Virus record (IMG/VR): IMGVR_UViG_3300032282_001564
Location: 32,001 to 96,000 of that record
Strand: one strand, 5' to 3'
Origin: a virus
DNA length: 64,000 nt
Below the pieces are notes generated by a model. That model was not told where the DNA came from, searched no databases, and worked only from the letters and a program-made list of their open reading frames with translations. Every line of letters begins with the position of its first letter. Position 1 is the first letter of the stretch. Positions 56,861-62,909 of this stretch are shown piece after piece. Position numbers and translations under genes: made by a program.

Positions 56861-57856
56861 TTATTCCTTTTCCGGGTATGCGGCTTCAAGCCAGGTTACA
56901 TATTGGTTAGCATAATCACTCATTTTAACCAAATCATATTTGCCACAAAACTTTAAGAACTGAGCACCAATCATTGGACGACTCAATGAGGTCGAACCTA
57001 CTGTAATTGTTTCTTTAATCTTTGTTTTAATGTCTTCGGGTTGTGCAGTAAGATCAACTAGCGTAACATTACGACTATAGTCATCTAAGACTTTGTGCTC
57101 CACACCATTGTGGTCAACCCAACGCTGTAACATTAGATTATTCCACGCAAAACCTTTTTTCTCGCGGTCCTCGAAAGCTTCGACGAGTCCCACTTTATTT
57201 TTACTTCCAACTTTCCTAACCCCCGGGAAGGCAGAAAAGATATTGTCGGTTGGATCCCCACGCATACACTTCTCGAATAAAATCCACTGAGGAGCCGGAA
57301 TTGTTTTTGCCTCCTTAGTTTTTTTATCAATGACTGGCTTACCTTTTTTGTCAAAAATACCTTGCGTAGTATGGAGCTCATCGCTAATTCCGTTATATTG
57401 ATTTACATTTTCTGCTAGTAGCTGGTGAAAGTCTGTGTCGCTACTTACAATGGTGTGGTGATCCTGAGGGTGACTTTGGATCCATCCTGCCACCAAGTCA
57501 TCTGCTTCCAACTCTGGGTGCTGGAGAACAGTACAATTTGTCTTTGTGCCGAGGAACTCTTTGAGAGCGTCAAAAGTTTCCCAAAATAGTCGATCTTCTT
57601 CTTGCTCGCTTTCGGTAAGCGCCGCACGGGCAACTGCCCGGTTTGCTTTGTATGGTGCATAGTAATCCTTACGCCAGCTACGTCCCTCCAAACAGAAGAT
57701 AACGTGGTCTGCTTGTTGATCTCTCCAGCACTTATTAACACTATTTAGTGTTACGTGGATAGCGAAACCCAAGCGATCCCAAGTATCAGCCTGACGATGT
57801 GCCGCATGACGGGCACGGAAGAAAGTATTAGCGGTGTCAACAATTAGATATCTCAT
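56861..57856 (-). CDS. rnh: T4 RNase H-like 5'-3' exonuclease (PIN/FEN fold)
   Basis: LIVD..N, WRK.YY.PYK.NR, EADD, SSDTDF.QL, GD.TDNI. Confidence 0.9.
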   Translation of the reverse strand: MRYLIVDTANTFFRARHAAHRQADTWDRLGFAIHVTLNSVNKCWRDQQADHVIFCLEGRSWRKDYYAPYKANRAVARAALTESEQEEDRLFWETFDALKEFLGTKTNCTVLQHPELEADDLVAGWIQSHPQDHHTIVSSDTDFHQLLAENVNQYNGISDELHTTQGIFDKKGKPVIDKKTKEAKTIPAPQWILFEKCMRGDPTDNIFSAFPGVRKVGSKNKVGLVEAFEDREKKGFAWNNLMLQRWVDHNGVEHKVLDDYSRNVTLVDLTAQPEDIKTKIKETITVGSTSLSRPMIGAQFLKFCGKYDLVKMSDYANQYVTWLEAAYPEKE

Positions 57857-62214: not shown

Positions 62215-62664
62215 TCATCCTTCGTATATAGCTGAGTTAGCACCGTGTTCTGCACATTCTACCCTTACGCAATAACAACGGTTATTAGTCTTTTCTCGAA
62301 TCAATTGATTGGCAAAGTTGAAAGCGTGTTCAGCAAACTTCTCTGCACCCACACCATCAAAGATTCGTATCTCTGCTAAGTCTAGTGTTTCTAATTCACG
62401 AAACTTGGCCAAATGTGGATCTTGTCGATCCAACGCCAACTTGTGATCAAAGTTATCTTCTAACCATGCTTTGAGCAGTTTAAGTCCGCCAAAGTCTACT
62501 GCCCAGTTCTTGTTGTCTAATGTATCACACCCAAATGTGAATGTGAATGCTAGACTGTAACCGTGTAGCAAATGACAGTGACTATGGTCAGCATTGGGTT
62601 GACGGAATACAGCACTTAGCCCAATGTTGTGTCCATAGTGTTTTGTTGAATAAAATTTTGCCAT
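62215..62664 (-). CDS. queD: 6-carboxytetrahydropterin synthase (QueD/PTPS family)
   Basis: HCHLLHGY, VDFG.LK, FDH, AE, E...NSA.Y; near queE. Confidence 0.85.
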   Translation of the reverse strand: MAKFYSTKHYGHNIGLSAVFRQPNADHSHCHLLHGYSLAFTFTFGCDTLDNKNWAVDFGGLKLLKAWLEDNFDHKLALDRQDPHLAKFRELETLDLAEIRIFDGVGAEKFAEHAFNFANQLIREKTNNRCYCVRVECAEHGANSAIYEG

Positions 62665-62750
62665 TGTAATTCTCCTATGTTATTATAGCATAGGCCTGCA
62701 GAATTTGTATAGCGGGATGAATGCCAGAAAGGCCGCTGTTTGTGGGGATA
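62665..62750 (-). ncRNA. Candidate structured cis-regulatory leader (riboswitch-like) of queD
   Basis: AGCGG/CCGCU stem, SD-sequestering CCUAUG/CAUAGG hairpin and an alternative GGCCU/AGGCC pairing. Confidence 0.45.
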
Positions 62751-62753
62751 ATA

Positions 62754-62909
62754 CTATTTAGTATCATCCTGTTTTGTTTTTACTTCTTCTACTCGTTTTT
62801 CTTTGTAGACCGGTTCGGGCAAGTATGGAGTGATAACATAGTAGTTAGCACCATACCAACCGATGGCTGAAAAGAAACCTACTACAGTCCAAGTAGCAAT
62901 TAATATCAT
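62754..62909 (-). CDS. Small membrane protein, not in the ORF track
   Basis: MILIATWTVVGFFSAIGWYG...KQDDTK (51 aa), ATGA-coupled. Confidence 0.6.
   Translation of the reverse strand: MILIATWTVVGFFSAIGWYGANYYVITPYLPEPVYKEKRVEEVKTKQDDTK

Follow-up and report, generated by a model that had tools for sequence, protein, structure and literature searches.

To our knowledge, riboswitches are rare in phages, and none has been catalogued for phage genes of the 7-deazaguanine pathway. In phage T4, genes e and soc carry a promoter inside the hairpin that masks the ribosome-binding site, and this arrangement sorts the transcripts by their origin. THF-II is another point of reference, since it reads a pterin through its guanine-like edge. 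The closest described relative in architecture is the preQ1-I riboswitch, a small H-type pseudoknot whose A-rich L3 runs along P1 (PMC11625349). In this RNA the dinucleotide UC (type I) or AC (types II and III) precedes the P1 3' strand, its C pairs with the ligand, and in types I and III a U or UU stands atop the P1 5' strand (PMC11625349).

The leader described here precedes a queD-like gene in the window, that is, the whole analysed stretch of 64,000 nucleotides, which comes from an IMG/VR virus record of 113 kb with a completeness estimate of 31%. The genes and the gap concerned are as follows.

62215..62664, minus strand: queD-like gene (PTPS/QueD family; Pfam PF01242 at 1.5e-13), the regulated gene in our proposal
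62665-62753, minus strand: intergenic gap of 89 nt, between the stop of the 51-aa ORF and the queD start at 62664
62754..62909, minus strand: 51-aa ORF upstream of the gap, with its stop 16 nt 5' of P1

The top NCBIfam match of the queD product was TIGR03367 QueD, with a score under the cut-off, and its homologues in cultured phages carry the QueD annotation. Downstream of the gene lie a cupin, a MazG-like protein and a QueE-like radical-SAM protein, and upstream lies a phosphoribosyltransferase of the xanthine/hypoxanthine type. The 51-aa ORF had no family match in Pfam or NCBIfam. Because its stop is only 16 nt before P1, read-through transcripts from there would carry the aptamer.

The minus-strand ORFs from about 57.9 to 64 kb overlap or abut each other, and the gap before queD is the sole one in these 6 kb or so, which agrees with the statement of the sequence-only reading that such gaps are rare here. 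The minus-strand string on which that reading was built (AGCGG ... CCGCU ... CCUAUG ... CAUAGG ... AUG) was found exactly between the 51-aa ORF and queD. Its description of the gap as GC-rich applies to the aptamer core, which has 53% where the window has 40%, but the whole gap has just 41.6%.

The pseudoknot in the gap consists of the following parts.

62733..62737, minus strand: P1 5' strand AGCGG, pairing with 62711-62715 (100% paired in 53 distinct leaders)
62726..62732, minus strand: L1, 7 nt; the first nucleotide is variable but never G and is followed by the invariant C62731 and U62730
62718..62725, minus strand: P2 5' strand (GGCAUUCA), pairing with 62693-62700
62716..62717, minus strand: L2, composed of U62717 and the unpaired C62716 directly 5' of the P1 3' strand (invariant columns)
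62711..62715, minus strand: P1 3' strand CCGCU, supported by covariation
62701..62710, minus strand: L3, an A-rich linker of 10 nt with invariant A at positions 3, 5 and 7 and an invariant terminal UC
62693..62700, minus strand: P2 3' strand (UGCAGGCC), whose last two C also open the Shine-Dalgarno (SD) hairpin

P2 has 8 positions in the window, where the mismatches are A62722.G62696 and U62720.C62698. The latter is the conserved U.C mismatch, which is invariant in P2 helices of 7-10 bp overall. L1 has the form N-C-U plus 1-7 further nucleotides. Its first nucleotide was U in 60, C in 52 and A in 37 of the 149 leaders parsed; the C and U that follow were set in advance by the parse pattern, and the alignment A2 described below shows them independently, as C9 and T10. 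Since the L1 nucleotide opposite the L2 C is never G, that C stays unpaired. The nucleotide before it was U in 102, A in 21 and C in 19 of the 149 leaders. The profile of L3 over 139 leaders gave the invariant A residues and the U-C ending listed above.

Compared with preQ1-I, the leader has the same H-type pseudoknot with a 5-bp P1 topped by two G-C pairs, the same unpaired C directly 5' of the P1 3' strand with U or A before it, and an L3 rich in A that links P1 to the P2 3' strand. C62716 occupies the position given for the specificity cytosine of preQ1-I in PMC11625349, and both RNAs lie in leaders of 7-deazaguanine pathway genes. There are also clear differences. L1 is N-C-U plus 1-7 nt here and U or UU in preQ1-I, L3 ends in U-C here and in A there, and P2 here measures 7-10 bp and carries an invariant U.C mismatch, compared with about 4 bp there. 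The SD lies outside P2, at least 17 nt downstream of it in the window. The predicted logic is ON in our models, in contrast to the OFF logic of preQ1-I, in which the SD or a terminator is captured on ligand binding. Finally, the queD knot has so far come from phage contigs only. As judged from its sequence, the leader is built like a preQ1-I aptamer, but we do not file it as a member of preQ1-I.

Guanidine-III, SAM-II/V, preQ1-II and THF-II/folE motif RNAs share the design of a compact pseudoknot or hairpin aptamer; none of them gave a cmscan match at E<=10, and their conserved nucleotides differ. No description of the motif was found in the literature searched or in Rfam, and it may be present as an unnamed entry in the IMG/VR structured-RNA catalogue (PMC10690425).

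About 200 related IMG/VR phage contigs carry the pseudoknot. A search with QueD gave 80 related viral loci, whose proteins were 85-95% identical and whose contigs in some cases measured about 350 kb, and the element was within 100 nt upstream of queD in 76 of these 80. At least 120 further IMG/VR contigs matched a sequence pattern written for the most frequent P1 variant, and QueD lay directly downstream in 111 of 120. In a few contigs (L129, L135, L141, L178, L052) queD does not directly follow the knot. In L052 the knot is about 200 nt upstream of queD, and elsewhere it precedes a cupin, a DUF1698-type methyltransferase, unknown ORFs of 243 and 293 aa, or the contig end.

A scan of 596 Gb of prokaryote genomes with the same pattern gave 23 matches. 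Of these, 21 were random GC-rich sequence and were rejected, and two were real, both on short MAG contigs. The two real matches are L213 (CAIJZG010000025.1) and L221 (CAZXGO010000106.1), on contigs of 5.9 kb and 8 kb with the MAG labels Bacteroidetes (Bacteroidota) and Chitinophagales. These contigs are probably binned phage DNA and give a weak host hint only. When the region and the leader were compared by BLAST with 50,697 records of cultured phages, there were zero matches, and the covariance model R1 was silent at the QueD loci of Synechococcus phage BUCT-ZZ01, Pseudanabaena phage Pan1, Achromobacter phage Motura and Erwinia phage Ep032. That is, neither this BLAST nor R1 on these four loci found a cultured carrier of the knot. 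There were no RNA runs among the sequencing runs listed as containing the sequence. As far as these data reach, the element is specific to phages.

When the window leader was folded as a single sequence, its MFE (-17.7 kcal/mol, z -0.29) was equalled or bettered by 77 of 200 shuffles. Unlike this fold, the comparison of relatives gave a signal above chance, which comes from hairpin 1 and the loop-to-tail pseudoknot. We parsed 149 distinct leaders using fixed anchors that are independent of the variable pairs. P1 covaried at three outer pairs, and P1.3 was CG in 126, AU in 18 and UA in 4 leaders. In P2, both-side changes occurred at 6 of 7 pairs: P2.4 showed all four Watson-Crick types (UA 55, GC 31, AU 23, CG 12), and the junction pair P2.1 was AU in 142 and GC in 7. 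At P2 positions 4-8, 80% of the pairs were standard, against 31-47% when the partner was slid.

Two alignments gave the same picture. In A2, a gapless alignment of 44 sequences, 92.2% of the cells paired, compared with 75.5% after shuffling (0 of 500 shuffles reached the observed level) and 31-52% after sliding, and both-side changes were seen at 9 of 12 pairs. In A3, which was built with a model from 53 distinct sequences, the window among them, 92.7% of the cells paired, a value reached by 0 of 500 shuffles, and P1 was paired throughout. The shuffled level over both alignments was 74-76%. The covariance model R1 gave a single match in the window and in the whole record, at 62685-62739 with 54.7 bits. 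From this comparative evidence we regard it as essentially certain that the conserved RNA pseudoknot is real. The sequence-only reading had seen here a structured cis-acting RNA leader of phage queD and had proposed a covariation test on collected phage queD leaders. Conservation across the relatives and the covarying pairs, which include both hairpin 1 and the pseudoknot, bear this reading out.

The features that control access to the start of queD in the window are listed below.

62674..62694, minus strand: SD-masking hairpin of the class A platform, with arms 62689-62694/62674-62679 and loop 62680-62688, present in the MFE fold
62671..62676, minus strand: Shine-Dalgarno AGGAGA, read from the sequence
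62668..62673, minus strand: AGAAUU; in the window MFE its partner is AAUUCU at 62700-62705 (where L3 ends and P2b begins), and the SD mask is thereby extended

The two hairpins named in the sequence-only reading are both present, at 62733-62737/62711-62715 and at 62689-62694/62674-62679, and the second does bury a part of the SD, since the AGG of the SD lies inside the arm 62674-62679. That reading also held that two folds exclude each other at the ribosome-binding site. The idea itself is supported, but the strands are different ones. GGCCU at 62730-62734 and AGGCC at 62693-62697 are complementary; all five pairs, however, are standard in only 4 of the 149 leaders, and we dropped this pairing. 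The competition is between the pseudoknot (62718-62725/62693-62700) and the 5' arm of the SD hairpin, and the overlap of the P2 3' strand with the arm 62689-62694 can be read directly from the sequence.

The leaders sort into several platform types. The type of the window is class A, with 69 leaders, in which the stem of the SD hairpin is kept without covariation. The AAUUCU/AGAAUU pairing comes from the MFE structure of the window and is peculiar to it. In classes B, C and 'other', the MFE folds pair the P2 3' strand and the bases following it with the AUGGC start region. In 104 of 117 leaders the AUG was covered by a helix of 6 bp or more. When partners were swapped, the helix of a leader with its own start region was about 1 bp longer than that with a foreign one. 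Against mononucleotide shuffles, the P2b-to-start duplex was clearly significant in class C only.

We calculated the accessibility of the start region by partition function, with the leader either free or with the knot imposed. The unpaired probability of the SD rose from 0.36 to 0.70 when the knot was imposed, with an increase in 112 and a decrease in 3 of 147 leaders. For the SD plus AUG it rose from 0.32 to 0.51, with an increase in 101 and a decrease in 1 of 148. In the window the corresponding change was from 0.04 to 0.60. Since the P2 3' strand is also a part of the mask of the SD or the start, formation of the knot is predicted by these models to be the ON direction for queD.

A second leader of the same pathway occurs in the same phage.

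L230:2245-2297 (G000 ~98087-98139, about 2 kb past the high end of the window), minus strand: folE leader

This folE leader is 53 nt long and contains a covarying hairpin of 3-5 bp with the invariant loop AUCC[A/U]C, followed by a tail in which AACUC stands directly before the SD GGAG. The hairpin was found in 51 of 81 FolE loci, and its P1 pairs were 79-88% standard, against 30-40% when slid. Neither R1 nor RF00522 recognises the element. The endings of L2 and of L3 resemble each other in the folE element and the queD knot. The CC of the folE loop could pair with the GG of the SD, and this would give a mini-knot of the OFF type.

Taken together, we consider it probable, with some reserve, that the queD leader is a metabolite-sensing ON riboswitch. 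It has the general features of one, namely a conserved aptamer in the leader, an association with genes of one pathway, and a platform that shares a strand with the aptamer. In this proposal the H-type pseudoknot aptamer would act as a cis-acting RNA switch as follows. In the ligand-free state, the P2 3' strand would be held in structures that mask translation initiation; in the window these would be the SD hairpin with the AAUUCU/AGAAUU pairing, and on the other platforms the helix over the AUGGC start. The knot would most likely be stabilised by a small ligand that shows a guanine-like edge to the invariant C. When the knot forms, the P2 3' strand would be withdrawn, the SD and the start codon would open, and queD would be translated. 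Here we infer the binding and the identity of the ligand, and the ON direction is the one given by thermodynamic modelling. Several points weigh against this proposal. The unremarkable single-sequence fold, the stem of the SD hairpin without covariation, the P2b-to-start duplex with its modest signal in the shuffle and partner-swap controls, and the lack of conservation of the nucleotides that contact preQ1 in class I are among them. Further, the long P2 of 7-10 bp might form without a ligand, the internal promoter described below could make the switch irrelevant to much of the queD expression in class A, and an ON logic would be unusual for a biosynthetic gene if the ligand is the end product.

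The knot may instead be an operator for QueD or another phage protein, which would stabilise or melt it and autoregulate translation as gp32 does at T4 gene 32. The T4 gene 32 leader likewise has an H-type pseudoknot at the 5' end of a phage mRNA leader, which controls translation and is without an Rfam model. Pseudoknots of this type in phage leaders are known as protein operators, and the gp32 case is cited in PMC10690425. P2 is also long enough to fold without a ligand, and the conserved unpaired L1 C-U, the U.C mismatch, the L2 C and L3 would suit a protein or a ligand alike. However, the knot of T4 gene 32 nucleates cooperative protein binding, whereas the queD knot has the junction features of a metabolite aptamer, and its layout copies a small-molecule aptamer in detail, down to the unpaired C at the P1/P2 junction and the A-rich L3. 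Moreover, the related mini-element stands before folE, which encodes a different protein of the same pathway, so that a shared metabolite fits better than autoregulation by QueD. We therefore think that a protein operator is unlikely.

Another possibility concerns the promoters in and around the element. One of them lies inside it.

62682..62711, minus strand: sigma70-like promoter within the element (consensus scan, 10/12 plus TG)

Its -35 TATACA is at 62706-62711 (P1b/L3), the spacer is 18 nt with TG at 62689-62690, and the -10 TATAAT at 62682-62687 is located in the hairpin loop, giving TGnTATAAT. An internal promoter scoring at least 10/13 was found in 64 of the 69 class-A leaders, and a sigma70 promoter upstream in 2 of the 69. 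In classes C and 'other' the pattern is the reverse: P1 lies 7-8 nt downstream of the end of a strong promoter of the sigma70 type, and the knot thereby comes to stand at the extreme 5' terminus of the mRNA. That leaders with the internal promoter are without the upstream one, and vice versa, suggests that the internal promoter is functional. The sequence-only reading makes no mention of this promoter. Because its -10 is in the hairpin loop, a transcript begun there cannot form the mask. This resembles T4 genes e and soc, in that long transcripts are predicted to be masked and those with an internal start to be unmasked. It differs from them in the upstream pseudoknot, which competes for the 5' arm of the hairpin and possibly allows conditional release on the long transcript.

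Some other motifs were seen near P1. A (C/T)TAAATA motif stands just upstream of P1 in class-A leaders (62748-62760 in the window, minus strand) and also between the -35 and -10 of many folE promoters (L231-L310). A TATAAATA-like motif (at least 7/8) lay within 32 nt before P1 in 27 of the 69 class-A leaders, against 2.4% of random windows. The exact TATAAATA late-promoter motif was absent before P1 of the window, where the best match was 6/8, and in the 64-kb window it occurred once against 8.3 expected, that is, it is depleted. The (C/T)TAAATA / TATAAATA motif may be a phage-specific promoter element.

From the internal promoter one could suppose that the element sorts transcripts by origin without any ligand, the read-through mRNA having a fixed balance of knot and mask and the internally started mRNA being always translatable. 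The distribution of promoters in class A and the position of the -10 agree with this, and some folE leaders have the promoter-in-hairpin layout without any knot. But this explanation accounts neither for the classes B, C and 'other', which keep the pseudoknot directly after their sole promoter, nor for the invariant unpaired nucleotides at the junction, and it seems to us quite unlikely. In the ON riboswitch that we prefer, the internal promoter of class A would supply a short queD mRNA that is without the aptamer, unmasked and unregulated. The switch would then act in class A solely on read-through transcripts from upstream, in which the knot would decide whether the SD is free.

Could the leader be a genuine preQ1-I riboswitch after all, although a divergent one, with preQ1 or preQ0 as its ligand? 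The H-type fold, the two G-C pairs atop P1, the U/A-C, the A-rich L3 and the queD context all point in this direction, and for this reason the statement of the sequence-only reading that preQ1-I is not matched needs a qualification. It is correct for the covariance model RF00522, but the architecture is clearly like that of preQ1-I. A comparison with Rfam, which that reading had also proposed, assigned the leader to no family: at permissive thresholds cmscan returned noise alone (sn3060, ctRNA, PyrC leader and SNORD98, all with E>2). RF00522, whose gathering score is 39 bits, had no match at E<=10 on the 111 nt around the leader or on L029, the most Bsu-like relative, left the leader unmatched at E<=10 in a search of the whole 113-kb record, and gave 0 matches at gathering score in 20 related loci. 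The best match of RF00522 in the record, at 57309-57342 on the minus strand (16.2 bits, E 0.06), falls within a 331-aa ORF; we rejected it as a chance match. Among the structural differences given above, the absence of the class I nucleotides that contact preQ1 in the pocket (U in L1 and the terminal A of L3), which are not conserved in the queD leaders, and a P2 that is twice as long and has a fixed mismatch argue against true preQ1-I, as does the ON logic predicted by modelling.

The gene content of relatives bears on the same question. Five relatives with the queD knot that are 96-100% complete and about 350 kb long (G001-G005, the records of L007, L015, L021, L104 and L151) gave 0 matches to PF01702 (TGT/DpdA), and for QueC they gave weak partial PP-loop matches only, none of them convincing. 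With no TGT/DpdA and no clear QueC in these five, preQ1 is weakened as the ligand, and the pathway may miss preQ0 and preQ1 altogether. Thus, we think it improbable that the leader is a true preQ1-I riboswitch. Least of all can we credit a promoter region acting at the DNA level only, or chance hairpins without RNA function, for which the unremarkable single-sequence fold and the good sigma70 match inside the element might speak, because compensatory changes in two crossing helices over about 150 distinct sequences contradict such an origin.

Returning to the ON riboswitch, the pathway genes also give some hints as to its ligand. In Synechococcus phage BUCT-ZZ01 (L311, ON615601.1 69014-72457), a cultured T4-like cyanophage, the same cassette occurs as a series of overlapping genes in the order QueE, a xanthine-guanine phosphoribosyltransferase, a hypothetical protein, QueD and FolE, with no leader gap before QueD. 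As far as gene content can tell, a set of FolE, QueD and QueE with phosphoribosyltransferase, MazG and cupin neighbours may mean that no preQ0 is made and that DpdA is not used, and the phage pathway may go no further than CDG, or it may supply a nucleotide route. The candidate ligands then include guanine compounds as well as CDG and the pterin intermediates. The binding partners suggested in the sequence-only reading, namely a pterin, a deazapurine, a GTP-related ligand or a protein, are all still candidates. We speculate, tentatively and with more doubt than confidence, that the queD knot and the folE mini-knot form one uncatalogued riboswitch class that reads an intermediate with a guanine edge (dihydroneopterin triphosphate, CPH4 or CDG) and not preQ1. 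The ligand would turn folE off and queD on, and would balance the flux to an unusual 7-deazapurine product in a phage without QueC and DpdA.

In conclusion, the queD leader is a well-supported and abundant aptamer candidate from phage sequence only, with a frame like that of preQ1-I, a different pocket and the opposite predicted logic. With its size of 45 nt, the aptamer would make binding tests cheap. We think that the queD knot offers a compact case in which to test how an aptamer made of a small pseudoknot may be re-tuned to a new ligand or a new wiring, and that it may provide a handle on the product made by FolE, QueD and QueE without QueC and DpdA in large freshwater phages.
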